DNA of 64,000 nt from Candidatus Babeliales bacterium (lineage in GTDB: Bacteria; Babelota; Babeliae; Babelales; JANWKD01). The stretch lies in the NCBI GenBank assembly GCA_963722255.1, contig CAVRJO010000002.1:1-64000 (forward strand), read 5' to 3'. Shown here in pieces: positions 23,248 through 64,000 of this stretch. The notes beneath the pieces are model-generated. The model made no database searches. It was not told the DNA's origin and saw only the letters and a list, made by a program, of their open reading frames with translations. How positions within the stretch are numbered: position 1 is the stretch's first letter; every line of letters begins with the position of its first letter. A program made the translations under genes and the position numbers.

Positions 23248-24697
23248 TGTTAGCGCAAAGTGATAAGTTCCTATTATAGCGCAAAGTAAAAAGTTCCGGT
23301 TTTTAGGGTAAACTTAATCTTGTAAACAAAAAGAAAAACTCTAAAAATGCAACGGAACTTATATGGAATATATTACCATGAATCGCAAAGAACGAGAACA
23401 GGCAAAAGTGTTTGTTCAGGTTAAAGAAGGAAAAATGACACAGGCAGAGGCTGCAGCCCGTCTGAGATTTACAGAGCGGTGGGTCAGAGAAAAATATGGA
23501 AGATATTGTGAATCTGACGACTTTGGCCTTGTACATGGCAATAGGGGAAAAGAAAGCCCAAATAGATGGGATCAAGGAGAAGAACGATTGTTAATCTCAT
23601 TGTTAGAAAGCGATTGGCAAGGCTTTGGGCCAACCTTTGCGGCTGAAAAACTTAAAGAGTTGCATGGAATAAAGATAAGTCGAGAAGCTGTTAGAAAGGT
23701 CATGATTAAGGCAGGAATATGGCAACCTAAAAAACAGCGCAGCAAGCATCGCAAGCGACGAGAAAGAAGGCGTATGTTTGGCATAATGATTCAGCTTGAT
23801 GGCTCTCCACATGACTGGTTTGAAGGGCGTGCTGGGGTATGTACCTTACTTGTTTTTATTGACGATGCTACTGGCCAAATCCTTTGGCTTGAGTTTGCCC
23901 CTTCTGAATCGATGCATGCTTTAATGACCGCAACTAAAAATTACGTTGAAAAATATGGGATTCCTCAAACTTTTTATACTGACCACGGTTCTGTTTTCCA
24001 TGTTAATTTGAGTAATCAAGAAAATATTAAAAAGACCCAATGGGAGCGCGCTTGTAAAGATTTGGGAATTGATGTTATACATGCCAATAGTCCTCAGGCA
24101 AAGGGCCGCGTTGAACGTTGCAATCAAACCCTTCAAGATCGCCTTATTAAGGAAATGAGACTTGCTGGGATATCATCAATAGATCAAGCAAATAATTATC
24201 TGCGAACAAGCAATTATATTGCAAAGCATAATGCTGCATTTCAAGTTCCTGCTGCCCAAGAAGGCGATGCCCATGCTAGTGCTCAATCATTTGATTTAAA
24301 CGATATATTTAGCACACAAGAGACTCGTATTCTTACGAATGATTTTACTATTACCTACCAAAAACAGATTTTTCAATTAAGCGATCAGCAAAAAACAATC
24401 ATTTTTCCAAAAAATACCATTGTTGTTAAAGTACATTTAAATGGAACCATAAAACTGTGGATTCGAAAAACAGAACTTTCTTTTAGCGAAATCTACCAAC
24501 GACCAACCCCCCAAATTCAGGAGAAAAAAATATCTGACTGTATACCAAGAAAGCCTTCAAAAAATAGCCAACGTTGGGCAGGCGGGTTGCCCCCTAGTGA
24601 GAGTAGGTTGAAGCCGGTCGCGCCGGCCGTGGAGGCGCTTTAATGTTAGGAACTTTTTACTTTGCTAAATACCGGAACTTTTCACGTTGCGTTGACA
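23248..24697 (+). mobile_element. Insertion sequence, IS1202/ISNCY-type, 1450 bp, complete
   Basis: Ends TGTTAGCGCAAAGTGATAAGTTCC and (reverse complement) TGTCAACGCAACGTGAAAAGTTCC, each with an inner copy GCAAAGTAAAAAGTTCC; flanked by an 18-bp direct repeat. Confidence 0.93.
23363..24643 (+). CDS. DDE transposase (ISNCY/IS1202 group)
   Basis: HTH N-terminus; QLDGSPHDWFEGR, IDDATG, YTDHGSVF, SPQAKGRVER. Confidence 0.95.
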   Translation: MEYITMNRKEREQAKVFVQVKEGKMTQAEAAARLRFTERWVREKYGRYCESDDFGLVHGNRGKESPNRWDQGEERLLISLLESDWQGFGPTFAAEKLKELHGIKISREAVRKVMIKAGIWQPKKQRSKHRKRRERRRMFGIMIQLDGSPHDWFEGRAGVCTLLVFIDDATGQILWLEFAPSESMHALMTATKNYVEKYGIPQTFYTDHGSVFHVNLSNQENIKKTQWERACKDLGIDVIHANSPQAKGRVERCNQTLQDRLIKEMRLAGISSIDQANNYLRTSNYIAKHNAAFQVPAAQEGDAHASAQSFDLNDIFSTQETRILTNDFTITYQKQIFQLSDQQKTIIFPKNTIVVKVHLNGTIKLWIRKTELSFSEIYQRPTPQIQEKKISDCIPRKPSKNSQRWAGGLPPSESRLKPVAPAVEAL

Positions 24698-24949: not shown

Positions 24950-25528
24950 ATGAAGCATATATTTTTATCCCTATTAGTTATTCTTCCCTTTCTTCCCGGC
25001 TGTACTTCTCATGAAGTAGAACAAAATCATAAGCTTCCATCAGCAGAAGAAGTTAAAAAGAATCAGGCAGAAATTGTTGTTGACTTAAATGAATCTGCTC
25101 AGATTATTGTTGAACTCCTAAAAAAAAATAATATTAGTTCAATCCTTACTCCTGAAGCTTTGCAATCAGAAGATACTATTGATACATTACTAAAAAACTT
25201 TAGTCCTGCTCAAATGGCATTTGAGGCTGAAGTCTTAAATTTTATAGATCCAGTTATACTACTTTACTATGATGCTTCACAACCTGAACATAACGGTATT
25301 ATGAATGAATTTTTAGCAACTGCTCTTAATCATCAACAACGAGCAAAATTTGTACTTATTGAAGTAAACAAACTTTTTTCTTTAGCGGATCAAGCTCATA
25401 TAACTACAGCGCCAACTATTCTTCTTATTCATAACCGATCAGAAATAGGGCGCATTGTGGATCAACATTCTTCAATATTTGAAATCGAAATAATCAAATT
25501 GTTGGAAAAAATCACCGCTTCTGCTTAA
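24950..25528 (+). CDS. Lipoprotein with thioredoxin-like domain lacking CxxC
   Basis: Lipobox LPGC; PVILLYY...KFVLIEVN...ITTAPTILL..EIGRIV resembles the thioredoxin fold. Confidence 0.6.
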   Translation: MKHIFLSLLVILPFLPGCTSHEVEQNHKLPSAEEVKKNQAEIVVDLNESAQIIVELLKKNNISSILTPEALQSEDTIDTLLKNFSPAQMAFEAEVLNFIDPVILLYYDASQPEHNGIMNEFLATALNHQQRAKFVLIEVNKLFSLADQAHITTAPTILLIHNRSEIGRIVDQHSSIFEIEIIKLLEKITASA

Positions 25529-26324
25529 TTTTTGATGAAGATTTTTTTACCTTTGGTTTTGTTAACGATGCTTTCAAGGAAGAAATCAAGTCAGTTTCTG
25601 AACCAATTTTTTTTGATTTCTTTTCCTGTGCAATGAGTAATTTAGATTTTTTTCTCTTTTTAAGAGCGGCAACTAATTTTTCAGCAAAAGTATCTTTAAA
25701 AACTGAAATATCAAACTTTTTTTTATTTAATTGATTAATAATTGCTTTTGCCAGATCTATTTCTTGAGTAGAGAGTTTTGGTATACTCTTCAACGTCTCA
25801 AGAGATTCAATATCTTTTATTTCGTAAGCATAATTAAGAGTAGTGAGCAACAAACCATTTTCGTATGGTAAAATTACACAAACATGTTCTTTATCTTTCA
25901 TAACAAAATGGCCAATTGCCACTTTTTGAGTCTCATTTAATGCGCGAGCAAAAAAGAAAAAATGCTTTCTCGTTTCTTTTTTTGGCGCAAGGTAGTAATG
26001 GTTTTCAAGATAAATTGGAGAAATAAGTGCAGGATCGATACATTCAATAATATCAATTTCTTCAGTTTTTATCGGTTTCAATTTGTGTAAATTTTCTTGT
26101 GTCAAAATGAAATAGGTATCTTTTTTTATTTTGATACCTTTGACAATACTATTCCACTCGACTTCTTTATTGCAGTGATTGCACCACTTTTTATAGGTAA
26201 TTGGTGTATGACAAACTCCACATAATAAAGTAAAACCAAGAGAATGGGATTGAATTGCTGAAAATAAGGAGACAGGAATTGTTACCAATCCAAAAGATAG
26301 AGTTCCCTGCCAAATAGGTTTCAT
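25512..26324 (-). CDS. ku: Non-homologous end joining protein Ku
   Basis: MKPIWQGTLSFGLVTIPV, YYLAP, basic C-terminal tail; CxxC...CxxC in the bridge region. Confidence 0.93.
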   Translation of the reverse strand: MKPIWQGTLSFGLVTIPVSLFSAIQSHSLGFTLLCGVCHTPITYKKWCNHCNKEVEWNSIVKGIKIKKDTYFILTQENLHKLKPIKTEEIDIIECIDPALISPIYLENHYYLAPKKETRKHFFFFARALNETQKVAIGHFVMKDKEHVCVILPYENGLLLTTLNYAYEIKDIESLETLKSIPKLSTQEIDLAKAIINQLNKKKFDISVFKDTFAEKLVAALKKRKKSKLLIAQEKKSKKIGSETDLISSLKASLTKPKVKKSSSKIKQKR

Positions 26325-32249: not shown

Positions 32250-33764
32250 TTATATCATCCATAGGTGTGCCTCCTTTTTATTCGATTCTGATTCAGCTTT
32301 AAGTAATTCCGCTTCCCTTAATGTAGCAAATAGTTCTTGATTATTATGATGAATAATAATTCTATGATTTTGTTTAATTTGGTTCCAAAGTAATCGGATT
32401 TCATCCGGGATAATGATGGTATGCGGGTTACATTCTATTTTATAATTCCCAATTGAGGTAAGTTTATTCATAACTTTTTTGGCTGCAGTGATATACTTTT
32501 TTTGTGGAGACCAATCAAATATTTGTAAATATAACTTTGCTACGTTGATAAATTTTATTTCTATTTGGGTCAGTTCATTATAAAGTGCAATCTTCCTTTC
32601 ACCTAAATCAAAATCACGAGCTTTTTGCGCCAACCTGCCATATTCCTTCTTTTTTAATAGAGTTGTAAGCTCTTCAATATTTTGTTTATACCCATCTTTT
32701 GATAGGGCTTCATCCATTTTAATAAGCTCTTTTTTTATCATTTTATCAGTCATCTCTTTTATTGCATTGCGATCTTCCTTCTTTTTTGGTGACAAAGGTC
32801 TTTTTCGCTCATATTCCTCTATCTCATTTTTTATACCTAAGGCTTGACTTAATTGATTTTTAGCTTGATTTTTCACTATTTTTACTTCCTCTAAGGTATC
32901 TTTATAAATCCTATACATAGGCAACTTTTTTATTTTTGCATGAATTTTTTTCATTACATTTGGGATATCTTTATGTATAAATTCTTCTGATTCCTGATGT
33001 ATAGTATCTAATCCTTGATTTTCTGTTTCATCAAACATACTCTCTAGATATTGACTAGCGACTTCTTCTTTCATTCTATAATCTTTTAAATCATAAGATT
33101 GTTTATAAAAGAATTCTGCATTTCTATACATGGTACTACTCGTATGAAAAAAAAGTGCCTTTAGAAACTCTTCTTGTTCATTTTTTGCCTGAAGAAAGAG
33201 TGCAAATGCTTTTTCTTGATACCGTTTTCCTACCATATAATAATATTTTTTATAATAGCGTATTTTTTCAGCACGAAATTTTTTAGAATATTGTTGCGCT
33301 TTTGCAATTGCGATTTTGTCATTTTTGGCATGAAATAAAATCAGAGAAAGAAGATATTCTAATAGTTCAAATGATGTTTTAACATGCTCATGTTTTTTTT
33401 CAAAAGTCAGACCATTACCGAGTGGACATCTTAAATAATTAAGAAATAATTTGTATTTTACTACCTGATTTCTATACGATAAAGGATCATTGTCTTTTTT
33501 TGGAGTACCAATGGTAACTAATCCTGCCATTAGCTGTTGTCGCACCGACCTATTGGATGCTGAACCCATAAAAGATAATTCTTGCCCTCTTTTTTTCTTT
33601 GAATCAATCAATGCACTCTCCGTGCTCGCTGCTTTCGAAGGAATTTCATTGAGTGGTAAGGTCAGGTTGAATCTCTTTACCATTTTTTTATGAGTATCCT
33701 CATTTTCCATTGCATCTATAGACACCATGATTAAAAAAAAATAGATTATTTGTAGTGTTTTCAT
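32250..33764 (-). CDS. Secreted helical hypothetical protein, paralog of 33772-35364
   Basis: Likely start MKTLQII at 33764; signal + AME. Confidence 0.7.
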   Translation of the reverse strand: MKTLQIIYFFLIMVSIDAMENEDTHKKMVKRFNLTLPLNEIPSKAASTESALIDSKKKRGQELSFMGSASNRSVRQQLMAGLVTIGTPKKDNDPLSYRNQVVKYKLFLNYLRCPLGNGLTFEKKHEHVKTSFELLEYLLSLILFHAKNDKIAIAKAQQYSKKFRAEKIRYYKKYYYMVGKRYQEKAFALFLQAKNEQEEFLKALFFHTSSTMYRNAEFFYKQSYDLKDYRMKEEVASQYLESMFDETENQGLDTIHQESEEFIHKDIPNVMKKIHAKIKKLPMYRIYKDTLEEVKIVKNQAKNQLSQALGIKNEIEEYERKRPLSPKKKEDRNAIKEMTDKMIKKELIKMDEALSKDGYKQNIEELTTLLKKKEYGRLAQKARDFDLGERKIALYNELTQIEIKFINVAKLYLQIFDWSPQKKYITAAKKVMNKLTSIGNYKIECNPHTIIIPDEIRLLWNQIKQNHRIIIHHNNQELFATLREAELLKAESESNKKEAHLWMI

Positions 33765-33771
33765 ACAATTC

Positions 33772-35364
33772 TCACACACCATTACAATACATTCTATTAA
33801 ACTTATATTGAATTGGCTTTTGAATTCGTGCCACTCTATCAATTGAGTCATTTAATGATTTTTTTAACTCTGCAATGGCTCTTTGGTCTTGTTTTACTGT
33901 TGAATCAAGTGAATCAATTTTTTTGTGAATGCGTTTCATTCTTTTAATATTAAGCTTAATGGTTACAAGAATCTGTAACTGAGGGTTAAGAGCAAATGCT
34001 TCACGAAGTAATTTAGAAGATTCATAATAGTTATTTTCAATTCTTTTAAGATCTTGAATGTAACGAAATATATTTTTTTTAATCTTATAATCAATAATAG
34101 CTTTATAATAAATAGTTTGATTTTTTCCTTTAATAATAGTATTCAATTCATCAATAATTTTTCCGCTAAATTTTTTTTCTTCTTTATTCTTCTTACGAAC
34201 TACGATTTTTTTCTTATGTTCTTTCTCTATAATTCGTTCTAATTTTGCTTTATCACGCTTATTTAGTTTAGTAAGCCGTGCAGTTCGTTTACGAGGAGAG
34301 GTAATTTTTTCATTTTTTTCTTTAAGAAAATCCTTAAATTCGTTAAATGGCTGTAGTAATTTTTCAAGTTTTTGAGCTCTATTAATACATTTGCCTGAAG
34401 ACTGACAACGATTTCTAAAAATTCCATATTCTGGAAAGGTGTGAATTTTTGACTGTATTTGATATAAAAGATTGTTTATAGGGTCTAACATATGAGGAAT
34501 CTGTAGATCTCCTTGTTTCAAAGCATTCTCATAATATTGTTTCGCTTCGGCACAATAGGCTTGTGAGCTGTTATATAAGATTTTTTGCTTATATAAATTT
34601 AATGCTTGTTGTTCTTTATTCTCTTCATTCATGCGTTCTGCATCAGCAAATGCAATTTCAGCCAATCGTTGAAACTTTAACCCATCCAAAAGATTAACTC
34701 GACTATAATAATCTCGCTCCTCCTCTTCTATTTCTTTTTTTTTAAAGAGTGCATGCTTCAAATTTTCAACATCATCATGTTCTTGTGCAGCCTCGGCCAT
34801 TTGAATTGCTAAAAACTTTAATAGCCCATATTTTTTTTCAACAAGATCTTCCATGGTTACACATGGTCGAGGAACTGTAAAACAAGTAATATTAATCCAG
34901 GCTTCGAGCTCATCAACGATGTTTGTCGAAAAAGATTCATCGTCATAAATACTTTTTGAAAGAAGATCAAATAGTGTCATTTTGCCTTGTTGCACTTCAA
35001 ATTCAGAATCAGTACGGAAGAGAGTTTCTATTGATCGGTGTTTCGATGCTTGTTTGCGTGCTATCGGGGTAGTATTACTTTTATTTAATGACAAGGAAAG
35101 AACTCGTCTTCTTTGCGAAGGTGAGTTTAACATTGCCTGTAAAGAAGGGTCAATTTTAGGTTTTACAACTAATTCTTTTTCTCGCTTTTCTGTTTGGTCA
35201 TCTATAGTATTTTGAGAATCTAAGCTTGCGCTTCTCTCTCTTACTTTTTCTTTGCCTTTACCTTCCATCCCAAGGTTGGAATCTAGAGCCCATGCTTCCA
35301 TACACTCTAAAGTGCACGAAAAAATTGTGCTAAGAAAAAATAAAAGTACCCATACAATTTTCAT
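33772..35364 (-). CDS. Secreted helical Lys-rich hypothetical protein
   Basis: Likely start MKIVWV after AAGGGGA RBS; signal + CME. Confidence 0.7.
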   Translation of the reverse strand: MKIVWVLLFFLSTIFSCTLECMEAWALDSNLGMEGKGKEKVRERSASLDSQNTIDDQTEKREKELVVKPKIDPSLQAMLNSPSQRRRVLSLSLNKSNTTPIARKQASKHRSIETLFRTDSEFEVQQGKMTLFDLLSKSIYDDESFSTNIVDELEAWINITCFTVPRPCVTMEDLVEKKYGLLKFLAIQMAEAAQEHDDVENLKHALFKKKEIEEEERDYYSRVNLLDGLKFQRLAEIAFADAERMNEENKEQQALNLYKQKILYNSSQAYCAEAKQYYENALKQGDLQIPHMLDPINNLLYQIQSKIHTFPEYGIFRNRCQSSGKCINRAQKLEKLLQPFNEFKDFLKEKNEKITSPRKRTARLTKLNKRDKAKLERIIEKEHKKKIVVRKKNKEEKKFSGKIIDELNTIIKGKNQTIYYKAIIDYKIKKNIFRYIQDLKRIENNYYESSKLLREAFALNPQLQILVTIKLNIKRMKRIHKKIDSLDSTVKQDQRAIAELKKSLNDSIDRVARIQKPIQYKFNRMYCNGV

Positions 35365-35525
35365 CAAGTCCCCTTTACCCATAAGACTTTTTTTGTAAAA
35401 TTAGAGTACCATGTGTAGAAATCGCAAGTAAATAAATTTATTAATTATTGTATAATAATATCTATAGCAACCTTCATTAAGATATGCATATTTTTGCAAT
35501 TTAAAAATGATACTAATCGAAATAA

Positions 35526-35739: not shown

Positions 35740-37827
35740 CTATATTTCTGATTCTTTATTTGCTATGGCTAGTAACAATGGGGTTATTCCATCTTTATCA
35801 CCTTTGTAAATATCAGCACCTGCTTCAATTAATGATTCGGCAACTACAGTTTCATTATTTTCTAAAGCTAACATTAAAGGCGTTACACCTTCATTATTAC
35901 TTGTATTGATATTAACACATTTAGCAATTAAATACTGAGCAAAGTACGTTTCTTTATTTTCTATAGCCCATAACAGGGTAGTTATACCCCTATTTTTTCC
36001 TTTATGAATATCCATCGCTTTATTGATCAACCATTGGACAATGCCAAATTGTTTATCTGCAATGGCAATAGGCAACAACAGTCCAGTTATACCCTCACCA
36101 ATGTCAAATTGTTTATCTGCACGGCCTTCAAACCAATCATGTGGTGATCCAATAGTAATAGGCAACGGCGCTACTTCTTCATTAGCACCAATTTCGATCA
36201 ACCACTCAACAGCGCTATATTTTCCTTTTCTAATAGCTTGCTTTAACAATGGGGTTATTCCATCATTATCACTTTTAGAAATGTCGACACCATTATTTGT
36301 TAATTCATACCAATCAGAAATTCGAAGTACATGTCTACTTGAATTTTGTGCAAAATTAAGTTTAAGTCCTACATCCATTTTATGTAAAAATTTTTTTATT
36401 TCTTCGGATGTTTCTACATTACTATTTAAAGGACTTGTTTCTTCAGATTCTTGAGGCTGTGAGGAAATCTGTTCTTTCATTAATGGTATAAGATGTTGAA
36501 GTTCCAAGTTTCTTTTTGCTTTTTTAAGGGCAGTAATGCCATCCTGTCCACGAGCTTTGCAATTTGCACCATGTTTAATTAAAAATTGTGCAATAGGAGC
36601 ATTACGTTTTCTTAGGGCTTCTAGGAGCGGTGCTGTATTGGAAGCATGTCCATCAATATTTGCTCCTCTGTCAATTAACTTCTCAACAAGTGAAAGATTT
36701 GTATTAGTAACAGCAAAGAAAAGTGGACCAGATCCATTGTTATCAGATATGTTTACATCTGCGCCCAGATCGATTAATAAATCAACAGTTTGGGGAGTTC
36801 CAAAACATATTGCTTTAATTAAGGTTGTTTCGCCATCATGATCTTGAGCATTTATATTGGTTCCTTTTTTTATCAAAAATCGAACAATTCTGTCATGCTT
36901 TTGTGAAATTGAACGCATTATTGGAGTTAATCCTTTATTATCAGGCAATTCTATGAGAGCTTCCCTGGTATTTATGAATTTTTTAACTGCCCTATAATTA
37001 CCGATAAAGCAAGCCTCTGCTAAGGGTGTTAATCCCATAATAGAATCTTGTTGATTTATATCAAATGATTGACCCTCTAAAAGTGCTTCTATTTTTTGCA
37101 TATTATTTGAATAAAGAGCTGAAACTAATTGAGAATGCCCTTCTATATATGATTGTTTATCATAAGAATTCATTTTTTTATTAAAAAAATCATGCAAAGC
37201 ACTTTGTTGTTGTGAAGCATTTTTTTTATGATTAGTCATCAATAATTTTACTGTATCAACGCCTGCGCTGAGTTGTGCTTTAAAATGGGAAAATGTTACT
37301 TTTGCTTTTTTTGATGATACTTTACCCTTTTGTGGTAACTCTTTTTCGCCCGAATTCTTTTTCTCTTCTTTTTTTACTGTTCTACTTTTTTTAGATTCAC
37401 TCTGATTTCCGCCAGAAACCATGCGCTGTGCAACATCTGCAAGATTATAATCAAGTGCAAGAGAAAGAGCCGTATCGCCTTTTTCATCTGGGATATCGCT
37501 TTGAGCCCCATGATCTAATAAGAAATTAACAACATTAAAATTTCGACAACGAACTGCTTCAGAAAGAGGCGTTGAACCATTTAATGCTTGTGTATTAACG
37601 CTTGCACCAAATGCGACAAGCTTGTAAACCAGGTTACAATCATTGTTTTGAGCAGCAAATACCAAAGGAGGATTGCCATTATGATCATAGTTATCAAGAT
37701 TAGCGCCTTCAGTCATATATGTTTCTATCTTTTCTTTTTGACTCTGAACGCTCAGCTCCATGGCAAATAGAGGTAATGAACTGCAGATAGTGAGAACAAT
37801 GGCTAAAGGTATGAGATGCTTTTTCAT
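35740..37827 (-). CDS. Multi-ankyrin repeat protein, secreted
   Basis: Many GxTPL ankyrin repeats; signal + AME. Confidence 0.92.
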   Translation of the reverse strand: MKKHLIPLAIVLTICSSLPLFAMELSVQSQKEKIETYMTEGANLDNYDHNGNPPLVFAAQNNDCNLVYKLVAFGASVNTQALNGSTPLSEAVRCRNFNVVNFLLDHGAQSDIPDEKGDTALSLALDYNLADVAQRMVSGGNQSESKKSRTVKKEEKKNSGEKELPQKGKVSSKKAKVTFSHFKAQLSAGVDTVKLLMTNHKKNASQQQSALHDFFNKKMNSYDKQSYIEGHSQLVSALYSNNMQKIEALLEGQSFDINQQDSIMGLTPLAEACFIGNYRAVKKFINTREALIELPDNKGLTPIMRSISQKHDRIVRFLIKKGTNINAQDHDGETTLIKAICFGTPQTVDLLIDLGADVNISDNNGSGPLFFAVTNTNLSLVEKLIDRGANIDGHASNTAPLLEALRKRNAPIAQFLIKHGANCKARGQDGITALKKAKRNLELQHLIPLMKEQISSQPQESEETSPLNSNVETSEEIKKFLHKMDVGLKLNFAQNSSRHVLRISDWYELTNNGVDISKSDNDGITPLLKQAIRKGKYSAVEWLIEIGANEEVAPLPITIGSPHDWFEGRADKQFDIGEGITGLLLPIAIADKQFGIVQWLINKAMDIHKGKNRGITTLLWAIENKETYFAQYLIAKCVNINTSNNEGVTPLMLALENNETVVAESLIEAGADIYKGDKDGITPLLLAIANKESEI

Positions 37828-38220
37828 GGGTTCCTATATTCTATAATTGAAATATATCGGTATTTTTATTTTTTAATAATTTAATAATAACAAAGCAAGT
37901 GAAAATATCAAGCAAATTTGTTTTATTTAAAATAATTTAAAAAAATAAAAATACCTATTTGAACTTATATAAAAATTCAACAATCAAAGCTTTTTTAAAA
38001 GAACTCACTAAATATGCTAACAAAAAAATAGAAGTGTTTTATTATATAACGCGATTCATAAAAATGTGCATTAAGCAACTATAAATCCGCGCTTTTCATT
38101 CATGAATCAAAATTAATTCATTGAATTGCGTTTATTAATAAAAATGGCTGAATCCTGAATTAATAATTGGACCTGTATTCCAGAGAATTATAGTCAAATT
38201 TTTTTCATATAGCTCCATTT

Positions 38221-58233: not shown

Positions 58234-61200
58234 TTAAAATGACATATAATGAATAGCCAAATGCGTATCATTCGCTATAACCGTGTCATTTCCAGTTGTT
58301 GAAATATGAATTTGAATCCTATCTCCCGCGACAAATGGAAGCAAAACACAAGTTGTTATTGGAAATTGCCCTGTATTTTGTGTTTGAGAAACAGATGCAC
58401 CAGTAATGTCAGTTCCATTTTTATTAATATTAACTCTTTCAACTGAACCGACGCATGTTGCAGTTACTCCTACATTAACCATATAAACTCCTGAAACCGG
58501 CACAGTATATGTTCCTGTTGCGGCATTATAATTTGAGTTTGGATCCAATAAAACCGTATTGAAAAGAATTGTCGCAGTAGTATTGTTAACTCCCTGACCT
58601 GAATTAAGATAAGCATACATTTTATAATTCGATTTATAGGTAACACTTCCTGTCGGATCAATTATCAACCGTGCATTACCCGATGTAATTAAAGAAAGCA
58701 TATTGGTTGCAGAAGAAGTTATACCTAAATCAGTGCTGCCAGAAAATTGTAATGCAGGTGCTGCAATGGTACCCGCAGGTAATATTAATGAACCCGTCAT
58801 CGTATCTCCAGTTTTAAGCACGTCTAATGATGCATGGCCTATTAATGATGCCGTAATGGTACCAGCTGAGAAATTTCCTGATGCATCACGTCTTACAATA
58901 GTGCTAGCGGTGTTAGAACTCGTTGCGGCATTAGCCAAAACGGTTGCTGCAGCAACATTAGCAGCCGTTTGACCACCAACTGAACTTACCACCGTTGCTC
59001 CTTGTGTGCCGGTAACATCTCCGACCAATGATCCGGTGAAATTCGTTGCCGATCCGGCTGTTGTTGCACTTGTTGCATTACCAGTAAGGTTACCGGTAAC
59101 ATTTCCTGTTAAATTTGCCGTAATAGTTCCCGCTGAAAAATTACCAGAGGCATCACGCTTTACAATCGTATTTGCCGTATTGGTATTGGTAGCTGCATTG
59201 GCAGCTGTAGTTGCAGATGCTACATTTGCCGCTGATTGACCACCAACAGTACTTACTACCGTTGCACCTTGTGTGCCGGTAACATCTCCTGCTAACGAGC
59301 CGGTAAAATTTGTCGCAGTCGTTGCACTTGTCGCCGTTGTCGCATTTCCCGATAAGTTTGCTGTAATGGTCGTTGCTGAAAAATTACCCGAAGCGTCTCG
59401 TTTTACAATCGTATTTGCCGTATCCGCACTTGTCGCGGCATTTGCTGCAACAGCTCCGGAAGCAACATTGGCTGCCGATTGACCACCAACGGTACTAACC
59501 ACCGTTGCTCCTTGTGTGCCGGTAACATCTCCTGCTAATGATCCCGTAAAATTAGTTGCAGATCCGGCCGTTGTTGCACTTGTTGCAGTAGTCGCATTTC
59601 CTGATAAGTTTGCTGTAATGGTCGTCGCAGAAAAATTCCCTGAAGCATCGCGCTTCACAATGGTGCTTGCTGTATCTGCAGAGGTCGCTGCATTAGCTGC
59701 AGTTGTAGCTGAAGCAACGCTTGCAGCAGTTTGGCCCCCAACGGTACTTACCACGGTAGCACCTTGCGTGCCGGTAACATCTCCTGCTAATGAGCCCGTA
59801 AAATTGGTTGCCGATCCAGCTGTTGTAGCCGTTGTCGCATTACCACTCAGATTTCCCGTTACATTACCTGTTAAAGATGCGGTAATAGTTCCTGCTGAAA
59901 AATTACCGGAGGCATCACGCTTTACAATCGTATTTGCCGTATTGGTATTGGTAGCTGCATTGGCAGCTGTAGTTGCAGATGCTACATTTGCCGCTGATTG
60001 ACCACCAACGGTACTTACTACCGTTGCACCTTGTGTGCCAGTAACATCTCCTGCTAATGAGCCGGTAAAATTTGTCGCAGTCGTTGCACTTGTTGCCGTT
60101 GTCGCATTTCCCGATAAGTTTGCTGTAATGGTCGTTGCTGAAAAATTACCCGAAGCATCTCGTTTTACTATCGTATTATTAGTATCTGCACTTGTGGCTG
60201 CATTTGCAGCTGTAGTTGCAGCAGCTACGTTTGCAGCTGTTTGACCGCCAACAGTACTAACCACAGTGGCACCTTGTGTGCCGGTAACATCTCCTGCTAA
60301 CGAGCCGGTAAAATTGGTTGCCGATCCGGCCGTCGTTGCCGTCGTTGCCGTGGTAGCATTACCTGATAAATTTGCTGTAATGGTTCCGGCTGAAAAATTA
60401 CCTGATGCATCACGTTTTACAATCGTACTTGGAGTATCACTACTTGTCGCAGCATTCGCGGCTATTGTTGCTGAGGCAACACTTGCTGCAGTTTGTCCAC
60501 CGACCATACTAACGACTGTTGCTCCTTGTGTTCCGGTAACATCACCGGCTAATGAACCCGTAAAATTGGTTGCCGATCCGGCCGTCGTTGCCGTTGTCGC
60601 ATTACCACTCAAATTTCCCGTTACATTACCTGTTAAAGATGCGGTAATTGTTCCTGCTGAAAAATTACCTGAGACATCTCTTTTTACAATCGTACTTGCC
60701 GTATTTGTATTGGTAGCAGCATTTGCTGCAACGGCACCTGAAGCAACATTGGCTGCCGTTTGACCGCCAACGGTACTAACAACCGTAGCGCCTTGTGTTC
60801 CAGTAACATCACCAACTAATGGACCAGTAAAGCTTGTTGCTGTTGCTGCATTCCCTGACAAACTTGCTGTTATGGTGCCTGCTGAAAAATTACCTAACCC
60901 ATCACGTGAAACAATCGTATTTGGTGTATTAGCACTAGTTGCATCGGTTGCAATATTTACATCATTTGCATTATTAGTAACAACTATATGCGAACCATTA
61001 GAAATAGTTTTAAAGTTTAAGGTAACACCCGTTTTATCTCTGAATATTTGACCAGTCCCAGCACCCACATTAGCACCAGTTGTTTGACTTGGTAATGAAA
61101 ATTCAGCAAATTGTAAAGGATTAGTATCAATAATTGCTGCTGATGTGGTACATACCCAACTTGAACCGGCATTTACAGTACCTGAAAGTGTTAGAATGTA

Positions 61201-64000
61201 CGCTTCTCCCGCGGTAGTACCTGATGTAAAGTCAGCTGGGCGTATCCATGCGCCAACTTCATCAAGCCACAATCCATTTTGTATTGGATTTGTTTGTCCT
61301 ACAAGCAGTACTCGTTCCCCTGCAGTAAGTGTTACACCATCAATAGTCTGCAAACCACTTAACGCAACATTAGTAGTACTCACAACTACTGCAGGATTTT
61401 TAACGACAAATCCTGTTGATACTGCAGAGTCAACATATGATTTTGTTGCTACATCTGTAGGATTGGAAGTAGTACCATCAATAGTAATCATATGGGTAGC
61501 AAAATTACCCAAACCATCACGCAATACAATTGTGTTTGGCGTATCCGCACTTGTTGCTGTGGTAGCAGAATTTGCAACTTTACCCGGCGTTGAAATAGTT
61601 GCTAATTTATTATCAGTAATTGCTGCACTTGCACTAATATCAGCATTAACAATGAGTGATGTTGTTAAATTTCCTGAGTTATCATTATGAACAACTCCTG
61701 CCGGTGTTAAGCCGCCAACTTGCAAATTACCATCGGTTGTTAATACACCTGCCGATGAACGGTATAAATCCGTGTCGCCTGCCCATATTAATTTTGCAAC
61801 AGTGTTCGTTGGTAGTGGCGCATTTGTTGCCATTGGAAACAACACTTCATTATTAAAACCATCAAGTTGCATAACACTATTTGAACCGCGCGCTGCTTGG
61901 CCTGATGTATCATTATTGGTATAGGTAAATGCTAAGTTTGCCGAGGTACCAACTTTATCAATGCTCCAGCCACGAACATCAGTACCATTATTAAGACCTG
62001 AAGTATCTGAAATAAGATTAATAGTTGCTTGATTTGTACGATTACCAGTCACCACATAATAATTAGCATCATTATTTGATGCTTGCGTAGCATTAAACGT
62101 TGGATTCGCATTTGGATTTACATACACGGTCCCCTTATTACCATAATAATTGGGTTGGTATTCAAGATTTTGAAATAAAGCTTGTCCATTAAGAACTTGA
62201 TATAATGTTTGACTAACATCAGCAGTATTTCCAATGGTTAATGCTTCATTCGTGGTTCTATCAAAAGCAGAAAAAGTTACATTAGCAGGATTGGATATAC
62301 TTAATTTATTTGTATCAAAAACGCCACCAGCAAAACGAAAGGTCGAGCTACCAAGTTGTAAAACATCTGTCACACAGTTTCTAAAGACTGAAGTTGACCG
62401 AATAAGCGTTGCACTTGTATCTCCGGCAATACCACATTGAATACCAATGCTTGTATTTTGAATTGTAGAAGCATACACAAATATAGATGCCGCTGTTGTT
62501 GCCAACACTGCCGTACCTTGTGGCGTTAATGTTGCATCATTACCATCAACATTACACCCTTCCATAGTTATTATTGTATTTGCTCCCGATGCAGCAACAT
62601 TGGTAGAATTTGCATTATTAATGACAAAATTACAACCAACAACTTCTGTTATACTGCCACCGCTCGCTATAACACCCGTTGTTGTCGTGTCAAAATTGGT
62701 ACTCAAAACTCGTACATTAGATCCACCATTAACTGAGATACCTGTTGCCAGCAAGCGAAGTTCATTACCAATTAAGGTTACTAATGAACTTGTTCCTGTC
62801 ACCATTAAAGCAGTATTTGCTGGCGTTCCACTTACTACTCCAAGGAAAATATTACCTTCTATAAGAACTTGCGCATTACTAATTGAAACTCCTGTTGTAT
62901 TACCCAAAGGTAAAACGTTGATAAGGGCTGCAAGTGGAACTGCACCGAATCCATTCAATGAAAGTCCCGTTTGAAACCCTTCAACAACCATCGATTCAAA
63001 TCCAGCTTGGCCTACTCCAGTAACCACCATATTTACACCACTTGCTGTTGATCCTGGCGCTCCAGCATTTAATGTTAGATTAAGAAAAGAAAAATTCGAC
63101 GTTGTAACATTAAATAAATTATTAGAAAGAGTTGAAGGTACTATAATTGAACCTGTAATAGAACTTCCCACAATACTTATGCCATCAGCAGTAATGGTAA
63201 TTGGACCACCGGAGTTATTTTCAACAAATACTCCAGCACCAATACTAATAACTATTGGATTGCTCAAGCTTGCCACACCATTGGCAACATTTACTGCATG
63301 ACTTACGGTACGAAATGGCGCTGCAAATGAACCATCATTACTATCACTACCGCTCAATGATACATAATAAGTTTCAGTTACGGCAGGTGAGCCTCCAACA
63401 GTCGCCCAGTGAGTAGCCGATGGTGATGTTGCTTGTAACACCTGACCGGCTGTCGGTGCACTTGCTGGTAAATTAACGGTATAACTTGAACCAACGGTTG
63501 CTGGTGCATCCAAACCGACGTAGTTTCCACTGCCGGTTCCATCTTGAAAACGCACTTGCGATTGCAATGCCATATTTAGATTGCCCGTCATAGTATCACC
63601 AGCTTTGAGCACGTTTTGTGATGCAGAACCTGTTAAGGATGCCGTAACAGTTCCAGCTGAAAAATTACCTAATCCATCTCGTAACACAATAGTGTTTGGC
63701 GTATCAGCACTTGTTGCTGTGGTAGCTGAATTTGCAACTTTGCCTGGCGTTGAAATAGTTGCTAATTTATTATCAGTAATTGCTGCACTTGCACTAATAT
63801 CAGCATTAACAATGAGTGATGTTGTTAAATTTCCTGAGTTATCATTATGAACAACTCCTGCCGGTGTTAAGCCGCCAACTTGCAAATTACCATCGGTTGT
63901 TAATACACCTGCCGATGAACGGTATAAATCCGTGTCGCCTGCCCATATTAATTTTGCAACGGTGTTCGTTGGCAATGGTGAATTTGTGGCAACCGGAAAG
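58234..64000 (-). CDS. Giant repetitive fibre/adhesin-like protein with C-terminal C1q domain; 5' end lies beyond the window
   Basis: Frame stays open to the window edge (FPVATNSPLPTN); beta-helix region, tail-fibre-like motifs, eight ~81-86-aa repeats, C1q motif ILFNTVLLDPNSNYNAATGTYTVPVSGVY. Confidence 0.88.
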   Translation of the reverse strand, partial: FPVATNSPLPTNTVAKLIWAGDTDLYRSSAGVLTTDGNLQVGGLTPAGVVHNDNSGNLTTSLIVNADISASAAITDNKLATISTPGKVANSATTATSADTPNTIVLRDGLGNFSAGTVTASLTGSASQNVLKAGDTMTGNLNMALQSQVRFQDGTGSGNYVGLDAPATVGSSYTVNLPASAPTAGQVLQATSPSATHWATVGGSPAVTETYYVSLSGSDSNDGSFAAPFRTVSHAVNVANGVASLSNPIVISIGAGVFVENNSGGPITITADGISIVGSSITGSIIVPSTLSNNLFNVTTSNFSFLNLTLNAGAPGSTASGVNMVVTGVGQAGFESMVVEGFQTGLSLNGFGAVPLAALINVLPLGNTTGVSISNAQVLIEGNIFLGVVSGTPANTALMVTGTSSLVTLIGNELRLLATGISVNGGSNVRVLSTNFDTTTTGVIASGGSITEVVGCNFVINNANSTNVAASGANTIITMEGCNVDGNDATLTPQGTAVLATTAASIFVYASTIQNTSIGIQCGIAGDTSATLIRSTSVFRNCVTDVLQLGSSTFRFAGGVFDTNKLSISNPANVTFSAFDRTTNEALTIGNTADVSQTLYQVLNGQALFQNLEYQPNYYGNKGTVYVNPNANPTFNATQASNNDANYYVVTGNRTNQATINLISDTSGLNNGTDVRGWSIDKVGTSANLAFTYTNNDTSGQAARGSNSVMQLDGFNNEVLFPMATNAPLPTNTVAKLIWAGDTDLYRSSAGVLTTDGNLQVGGLTPAGVVHNDNSGNLTTSLIVNADISASAAITDNKLATISTPGKVANSATTATSADTPNTIVLRDGLGNFATHMITIDGTTSNPTDVATKSYVDSAVSTGFVVKNPAVVVSTTNVALSGLQTIDGVTLTAGERVLLVGQTNPIQNGLWLDEVGAWIRPADFTSGTTAGEAYILTLSGTVNAGSSWVCTTSAAIIDTNPLQFAEFSLPSQTTGANVGAGTGQIFRDKTGVTLNFKTISNGSHIVVTNNANDVNIATDATSANTPNTIVSRDGLGNFSAGTITASLSGNAATATSFTGPLVGDVTGTQGATVVSTVGGQTAANVASGAVAANAATNTNTASTIVKRDVSGNFSAGTITASLTGNVTGNLSGNATTATTAGSATNFTGSLAGDVTGTQGATVVSMVGGQTAASVASATIAANAATSSDTPSTIVKRDASGNFSAGTITANLSGNATTATTATTAGSATNFTGSLAGDVTGTQGATVVSTVGGQTAANVAAATTAANAATSADTNNTIVKRDASGNFSATTITANLSGNATTATSATTATNFTGSLAGDVTGTQGATVVSTVGGQSAANVASATTAANAATNTNTANTIVKRDASGNFSAGTITASLTGNVTGNLSGNATTATTAGSATNFTGSLAGDVTGTQGATVVSTVGGQTAASVASATTAANAATSADTASTIVKRDASGNFSATTITANLSGNATTATSATTAGSATNFTGSLAGDVTGTQGATVVSTVGGQSAANVASGAVAANAATSADTANTIVKRDASGNFSATTITANLSGNATTATSATTATNFTGSLAGDVTGTQGATVVSTVGGQSAANVASATTAANAATNTNTANTIVKRDASGNFSAGTITANLTGNVTGNLTGNATSATTAGSATNFTGSLVGDVTGTQGATVVSSVGGQTAANVAAATVLANAATSSNTASTIVRRDASGNFSAGTITASLIGHASLDVLKTGDTMTGSLILPAGTIAAPALQFSGSTDLGITSSATNMLSLITSGNARLIIDPTGSVTYKSNYKMYAYLNSGQGVNNTTATILFNTVLLDPNSNYNAATGTYTVPVSGVYMVNVGVTATCVGSVERVNINKNGTDITGASVSQTQNTGQFPITTCVLLPFVAGDRIQIHISTTGNDTVIANDTHLAIHYMSF

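Follow-up and report, generated by a model that had tools for sequence, protein, structure and literature searches.

A probable repair scar: an in-frame 30-nt piece of ISNCY transposase sequence in an ankyrin-repeat gene of a Candidatus Babeliales bacterium

Introduction

Break-repair scars that hold recognisable foreign sequence are well documented in eukaryotes but are rarely recognisable in bacterial genomes. Here we describe an ankyrin-repeat gene of a Candidatus Babeliales bacterium (GenBank assembly GCA_963722255.1, contig CAVRJO010000002.1) in which one copy of a local repeat is split by 30 in-frame nucleotides (nt) encoding a peptide of the transposase of an ISNCY-family insertion sequence (IS). 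The gene and a resident copy of the IS lie within a stretch of 64,000 nt (hereafter the window), the first 64 kb of contig C2 in a genome of 1.62 Mb, two contigs (C1 and C2) and 34% G+C. The feature is probably a non-functional repair scar with a diverged ISNCY element as its donor. Events of this kind are already known; what is new is the instance, an in-frame piece present in two strains of a host-dependent bacterium within an ankyrin gene of secreted type.

Among the closest described processes is the capture of heterologous DNA in chromosomal breaks by bacterial non-homologous end joining, demonstrated experimentally in Sinorhizobium meliloti (PMC6379672). As in that account, an unrelated fragment has been inserted without homology or the hallmarks of transposition, and the pathway genes are present here. 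The captured pieces described there are kilobase cassettes delivered by transformation at an engineered I-SceI break, whereas here a natural 30-nt piece with a putative donor and a putative pathway is accompanied by a local copy. The templated insertions of microhomology-mediated break-induced replication and of polymerase-theta-type end joining, described mainly in eukaryotes, also combine a patch from less than 100 nt away with a distant patch, in tens of bases joined at microhomologies of 1-4 nt, but they involve eukaryotic enzymes and data from cancer or yeast. Measured against the marks of such insertions, the present locus has TG at its junctions and a 38-nt copy 60 nt away, the genome encodes homology-independent joining, and the class of the template is given by 11/11 residues, with no DNA donor matched at 30/30.

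Two further comparisons concern the mobile element itself. The long-duplication IS1202 group is characterized in PMC10132070 by 5'-TGT ... ACA-3' ends and target duplications of 16-28 bp. The resident element, to whose family the source sequence is assigned, has TGT..ACA ends and a 17-18-bp duplication, in contrast to the insert, which is internal coding sequence of a non-resident variant with neither ends nor duplication. Domesticated transposases and transposase fusions likewise place transposase-derived residues within a host protein, but the insert contributes only 10-11 residues, without a catalytic residue or a fold-sized unit. No natural bacterial in-frame patch from a mobile element was met in the literature, in a search not designed to prove absence.

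Anatomy of the insert

The translation of the ankyrin open reading frame (ORF) holds the stretch ...LPITIGSPHDWFEGRADKQFDIGEGITGLLLPIAIADKQFGI..., including the peptide GSPHDWFEGRA. Residues 555-581 read LPITI-GSPHDWFEGR-ADKQFDI-GE and are followed by a complete ankyrin repeat, GITGLLLPIAIADKQFGIVQWLINKAMDIHKGKNR. On the minus strand, positions 36166..36100 read TTGCCTATTACTATT, GGATCACCACATGATTGGTTTGAAGGCCGT and GCAGATAAACAATTTGACATT in succession, and the unbroken version, TTGCCTATTGCCATTGCAGATAAACAATTTGGCATT, stands at 36076..36041. An independent repeat search recovered the flanking parts as two pairs, D3 (36039-36061 and 36099-36121) with a spacing of 60 and D6 (36060-36076 and 36150-36166) with a spacing of 90; copy 1 therefore contains exactly 30 extra nt (Table 1). 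Judged by eye, the two copies of the 38-nt direct repeat have sharp edges, with 35/38 positions identical inside and only about 3/9 just upstream. CA (TG in the sense of the gene) is found at both junctions of the insert, which leaves an ambiguity of 2 nt, and at the right junction identity with the IS sequence continues up to TGC(A), so that the junction microhomologies amount to 1-4 nt. The insert is a multiple of three and has no stop codon, and the ankyrin frame stays open.

The preliminary description of this DNA had the insert interrupting one copy of a local duplication, which the spacing of 60 versus 90 bears out, although the "duplication" may in part be a degenerate ankyrin repeat. 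Alignments of other ankyrin stretches in the genome (C1:719440-719949 and C1:719248-719775) over the site open gaps of 22 and 23 residues. These gaps fit an extra block of 66 nt in the inter-repeat loop, in which the 30-nt IS piece is preceded by a local copy of 15 nt and followed by one of 21 nt. In alignments with the closest database relatives (38% identity), EEVAPLPITI falls opposite GVTPLIAAI, the beginning of a repeat. The segment may be an old truncated repeat that was later given a short conversion tract plus the IS piece; the local anatomy fits either a single complex event or a series of two or three simple ones.

The counterpart of the insert in the resident IS lies at 23801-23830, GGCTCTCCACATGACTGGTTTGAAGGGCGT(GCT), and the resident transposase reads ...MIQLD-GSPHDWFEGRA-GVCTLLVFIDDA.... 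The Pfam rve match in this protein begins at residue 151; given that start, the Asp ahead of GSPHDWFEGRA is probably the first catalytic Asp of the DDE domain. The outer ends of the IS are TGTTAGCG... and ...GTTGACA, and target duplications of 17-18 bp are present in 7/7 copies. Ends and duplications agree with the ISNCY/IS1202 long-duplication group, a grouping made by these features and not by homology of the transposase to IS1202. In a tblastn search seven full-length copies were found in the genome, six with protein identities of 99.8-100% and one, whose end is broken, with 94%; the only further matches were a fragment at a contig end, where C1 terminates within a partial ISNCY copy, and the ankyrin piece. 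The seven near-identical copies imply a recent expansion.

As the preliminary description held, the insert is not a normal footprint of IS insertion or excision. It starts about 550 nt into the 1450-bp element, within internal transposase coding sequence, and neither terminal repeats nor a 17-18 bp duplication were found at the site, where the flanks (...ACTATT and GCAGAT...) continue the repeat and share only TG; all seven IS copies, by comparison, have both ends and duplication.

Transposase origin of the peptide

As the preliminary description stated, the peptide GSPHDWFEGRA is identical in the ankyrin protein and the transposase (11/11 residues), the DNA matches at 26/30 positions, and every mismatch is at a synonymous third position; with the Ala codon included, the match is 28/33 and the same holds. 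The weight formerly given to this synonymous pattern as evidence at the DNA level was too high. The pattern follows automatically from the identity of the peptide, and using it as DNA-level evidence is circular. When ten mobile-element sequences (12 kb) were compared with the repeat-masked genome, the ankyrin match (26 nt) scored 36.2 bits, and the top match of a control with reversed, non-complemented queries scored 38.2 bits.

The argument instead rests on the peptide. Based on six-frame residue frequencies, the expected chance count of GSPHDWFEGRA in the genome is 2.6e-10; for any 11-mer of 14 mobile-element proteins it is 1.7e-4, and for any 9-mer 0.057. Furthermore, the peptide match falls exactly on the 30 extra bases within the repeat. 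Given the improbability of an 11/11 match and its coincidence with the interrupted repeat, we take the origin of the insert peptide from an ISNCY transposase as established by these comparisons.

Two cautions for claims of this kind follow: given peptide identity, synonymous-only differences add nothing, and in an AT-rich genome of 1.6 Mb a DNA match of 26/30 does not rise above background.

The donor and the age of the insertion

The seven resident copies carry one identical 33-mer and share the same 4/30 differences from the insert (5/33), which upholds the earlier view that the donor was a related IS rather than the copy in the window. Among 61 genomes of relatives searched with up to 3 mismatches, the only matches besides the locus itself were three IS copies in a genome of the same genus (G001). 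These copies represent a third synonymous variant, 3 mismatches from both the insert and the resident version, in a transposase gene with 80.6% DNA identity to the resident one. ISNCY lineages with such a spread of sequence thus exist in the genus. A pattern degenerate at four positions was found at 3 loci in 185,579 species genomes and at 21 loci in a metagenome collection, in scans that may leave out records of the source genome or of very near ones. All 24 loci have the transposase-like context ...Q(I/L)DGSPHDWFEGR..C.L.VF(I/V)D.A, and DGSPHDWFEGR is a conserved block of ISNCY transposases. These loci differ from the insert by one mismatch (3 loci), two (8), three (6) or four (7); the three with one mismatch come from unrelated lineages, e.g., a metagenome-assembled genome of Acidobacteriota, and codon degeneracy alone can yield such matches.

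On these comparisons, the putative donor is an ISNCY gene absent from today's copies, which may be a former resident, a relative that has diverged, or foreign DNA. The chance that five substitutions arising by drift inside the ankyrin gene would all be synonymous is about 0.001, a rough estimate that takes about a quarter of sites as synonymous. The five synonymous differences fit divergence under transposase constraint, and drift within the ankyrin gene is very unlikely to have produced them.

The ankyrin protein of a second strain (P0072), encoded on a 115-kb contig of another assembly, is identical at 682/695 residues (98%). It contains the whole LPITIGSPHDWFEGRADKQFDIGEGITGLLLPIAIADKQFGI stretch, and 12 of the 13 differences lie before residue 230. 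By this comparison, the insertion appears to predate the split of the two sampled strains. Of the 70 protein matches to the ankyrin sequence, those outside its own cluster are all at most 41% identical, and the peptide is present in 0/69; the sole close relative of the insert-bearing C-terminal module is P0072, which also has the insert. A DNA search for orthologs in four genomes of the family returned generic ankyrin matches only, with the 33-nt IS match as the only addition in G001.

Search for further captures

The preliminary description had seen in the insert a process that diversifies an effector. The genome-wide scans lend this no support, as neither peptides nor DNA revealed a second capture or a further isolated piece of a mobile element, and the ankyrin insert is a singleton in the genome. 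When peptide words of at least 7 residues, taken from 14 mobile-element proteins, were sought in all six frames of the genome except within full copies, and decayed full-length copies and paralog families were set aside, the only isolated matches of at least 9 residues were the insert and IPEIVNSDQ; the maximum of the reversed control was 8. A scan for shared 9-mers among 1907 ORFs of at least 100 aa, using words that occur 2-3 times, gave isolated matches of at least 10 residues only as family motifs, e.g., the GTPase G-box (assigned by reading), or as repeated elements and their edges. The DNA-level scan of the genome gave no second capture, only AT-rich coincidences. Two DNA matches above the control, C2:425300-425332 and C1:334662-334685, were rejected as AT-rich non-coding coincidences.

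The peptide IPEIVNSDQ is common to an IS3-like transposase and an outer-membrane-type ORF (C2:185305-185331), with 23/27 identical nt and all differences synonymous. It was rejected as a second capture because the motif is native: F.P..VN.D.... is kept in 10/12 aligned ortholog rows across the order, and the other two rows (L047 and L049) are probably the wrong ORF. This case is a useful false-positive control for claims of capture.

Two kinds of dedicated locus were rejected as well. A CRISPR-like spacer or memory locus does not agree with one insert inside one repeat copy of an intact ORF; no further insert-like units were found in the genome-wide scans, none of which was aimed at neighbouring cas genes. 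For a target of a diversity-generating retroelement, the differences between the repeats (A/G, T/C and A/G in 36 nt) speak against it, and the reverse transcriptase (RT) matches are of the group II intron type only and lie elsewhere in the genome.

Origin by repair and competing explanations

A patch from a distant locus, lying within a copy of sequence found 60 nt away and bounded by microhomologies of 1-4 nt, has the anatomy left by error-prone end joining or serial template switching. Before the split of the two sampled strains, a break or stalled fork would have arisen where a degenerate segment separates two ankyrin repeats. Its repair would have followed an error-prone, homology-poor route, either Ku/LigD-type end joining with filler DNA captured or copied, or serial template switching at microhomologies of 1-4 nt. 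The outcome would be about 30 nt of coding-strand sequence of an ISNCY transposase gene, set into a copy, 36-38 nt long, of the repeat next to it. Because the piece is a multiple of three without a stop and the protein region was already no regular repeat, the gene would have stayed open and the patch been tolerated. The genome encodes Ku, a LigD-type primase-polymerase (ligD_pol, 268.2 bits against a cut-off of 214.7), two ATP-dependent ligases (two DNA_ligase_A_M matches over the cut-off) and RecA. Capture by end joining or template switching, as first suggested, is the most economical origin, although the repair pathway, one event as opposed to two, and neutrality are what we infer.

Several observations weigh against this origin. 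The match of the insert at the DNA level does not beat its reversed control, and the junction microhomologies are short enough to occur by chance. The search for an exact donor of the 30-mer, suggested at the outset, yielded no 30/30 match in the source genome, 60 relatives or the 24 genome and metagenome loci, so that the source of the DNA is deduced from the peptide. Comparison with a pre-insertion allele or an ortholog lacking the insert had also been envisaged, and none was found among the 70 matches in a search of 5.8 billion proteins. The two strains are only about 2% divergent, too little for conservation of the insert to inform on selection, and neutrality is assumed. An alternative reading of the duplicate is a native ankyrin repeat that has been truncated, in which case the history would comprise more than one event. 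Finally, the Ku and LigD genes show capacity, not use.

A variant of repair would involve RNA, with a group II intron RT switching templates between ankyrin and transposase mRNAs and the mosaic cDNA sealing the break. The genome has group II intron RT genes in three intact, identical copies and in one decayed copy, sense orientation is common to the IS piece and the local copy, as in cDNA derived from mRNAs, and bioRxiv 10.1101/2022.03.14.484287 reports a role of group II intron-like RTs in break repair mediated by microhomology. The RTs here are intron-encoded and probably not of the free-standing G2L4 type described there, the shared orientation is a one-in-two coincidence, no poly-A, intron or other RNA signature is found at the insert, and a non-resident IS donor would still be needed. 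We therefore consider an RT-made patch unlikely; within repair, DNA-based joining or switching is more likely. It is similarly improbable that the 10-residue loop was exapted, i.e., kept as a new surface of a secreted ankyrin protein or as a mimic of the transposase segment. The gene is intact with its N-terminal module under purifying selection, the segment is identical in the second strain, and the family shuffles its C-terminal modules; but with only 13/695 residues differing between the strains, 22 identical residues are expected without selection, and the insert is a single case in the genome, has no catalytic Asp and is much shorter than a domain fold needs. An AlphaFold2 single-sequence model of the protein, with a mean predicted local distance difference test score (pLDDT) of 50 and its lowest values (31-35) over the insert segment, is too poor for inference.

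The remaining explanations fare worse. It is very improbable that a complete IS was inserted and later almost wholly deleted. This IS is active in the genome, with 7 near-identical copies, and another paralog of the ankyrin family is split by an IS200-type gene, but the piece begins deep inside the element without TGT/ACA ends or target duplication and does not derive from the resident IS. Since the flanks rejoin the repeat exactly apart from the common TG, two precise deletions that also removed the duplication would be required. Chance or convergent similarity without transfer of DNA could appeal to the score at reversed-control level and to the all-synonymous differences of the native IPEIVNSDQ match, yet it is effectively refuted by the expected counts (1.7e-4 for any mobile-element 11-mer and 2.6e-10 for this peptide) and by the exact coincidence with the 30 extra bases. 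An assembly chimera, which had been raised as the condition that would overturn the observation, is hardly credible either; the end of C1 in a partial ISNCY copy would favour it, but the 4/30 differences from all seven resident copies exclude misplaced reads of the resident IS, and the segment is also encoded in the separate assembly of a strain that is not identical, which removes the objection. Least probable of all is the guide or memory role on which the preliminary description speculated, in which the insert would record the IS as a spacer does and serve against the element. Its size of 30 nt is spacer-like and two repeat parts flank it, but it lies within one repeat copy rather than between repeats, as a single unit translated in sense orientation in an ORF, with no array and no other such units in the genome-wide scans.

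The repair scar is a clean natural bacterial example in which recognisable foreign coding sequence lies in frame, and it indicates that patches of this kind can become fixed in an expressed-looking gene of a small host-dependent genome that encodes Ku and LigD. Being a single event with no sign of function, it opens no new question by itself. It is highly doubtful that end-joining or RT repair in these host-dependent bacteria makes repeated use of short in-frame pieces of mobile-element genes, or of their mRNAs, to patch breaks in secreted repeat proteins that evolve fast. If this were true, such patching would genuinely, though rarely, supply effector-like proteins with new surface loops; the ankyrin locus, fixed in two strains or more, would then be the first case to be caught.

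The host gene and its genomic context

Table 1. Positions of the insert, its host gene and related features; positions are in the window unless a contig (C1 or C2) is given.
Feature	Position	Strand	Basis or remark
In-frame 30-nt piece, encodes GSPHDWFEGR	36121..36150	minus	Assigned to ISNCY transposase gene; junction 2-nt ambiguous (36120-36151)
Repeat copy 1, upstream part, encodes LPITI	36150..36166	minus	Repeat search D6, 88% to 36060-36076
Repeat copy 1, downstream part, encodes ADKQFDI	36099..36121	minus	Repeat search D3, 96% to 36039-36061
Repeat copy 2, unbroken 38 nt, LPIAIADKQFGI	36039..36076	minus	Within complete ankyrin repeat
Ankyrin-repeat ORF, 695 aa	35740..37827	minus	ORF call; Pfam Ank_2 E 4.6e-62
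Four-paralog ankyrin family	C1:93534-95663; C1:716885-720261; C1:731856-733808; window 35740-37827		Signal-peptide type, common N-terminal module
Resident ISNCY-family IS, 1450 bp, TGT..ACA ends, 18-nt target duplication	23248..24697	plus	NF033594 E 4.7e-120
ISNCY transposase ORF, 426 aa	23363..24643	plus	NF033594 401.1 bits vs cut-off 250
Ku homolog	25512..26324	minus	PF02735, 128.8 bits, over cut-off; 10 kb from ankyrin gene; context, not part of insert
End-joining kit (Ku, LigD-type polymerase, two ATP-dependent ligases)	window 25512-26324; C1:10779-11519; C1:218952-219554; C2:701124-701690	minus (window 25512-26324)	Over family cut-offs
Group II intron RT genes, three identical intact (448 aa)	C1:85333-87224; C1:189360-191271; C2:248406-250308
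Decayed group II intron RT copy with stop codons	C1:616550-618417

The ankyrin ORF is intact, and its N-terminal start resembles a signal peptide. Multiple repeats exceed the gathering score (Ank_2, 207 bits; Ank, 154 bits), which places it in the Ank family. Matches to models of Legionella Dot/Icm effectors all remained far under the cut-off, so that the ORF falls outside those families. It is one of four paralogs with a common N-terminal module, which shows 83-89% DNA identity over 36439-37973 and ratios of nonsynonymous to synonymous substitution (dN/dS) of 0.39 (465 codons) and 0.19 (150 codons). The N-terminal module common to the paralogs is under purifying selection. The C-terminal modules of the four paralogs are mutually unrelated and are shuffled within the family, and the insert-bearing C-terminal 225 aa occur once in the genome. 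The paralog at C1:716885 is interrupted by an IS200-type transposase gene (C1:718234-718713). The differences between the proteins of the two strains are concentrated in the common N-terminal module and resemble residues of the paralogs, which suggests that gene conversion lies behind them.

Some observations were made on the surroundings. A complete-looking end-joining kit is present in this 1.6-Mb host-dependent genome. Directly downstream of the ankyrin gene, at 32250-35382 on the minus strand, there are two neighbouring Lys/Glu-rich ORFs of about 535 aa each that overlap by 80 nt, the second with a signal-peptide-like start. The end of the window, from 58838 to 64000, consists of repeated DNA with 2-13 matches elsewhere in the genome, and holds repetitive ORFs rich in Ala, Val and Thr that run past the window end.

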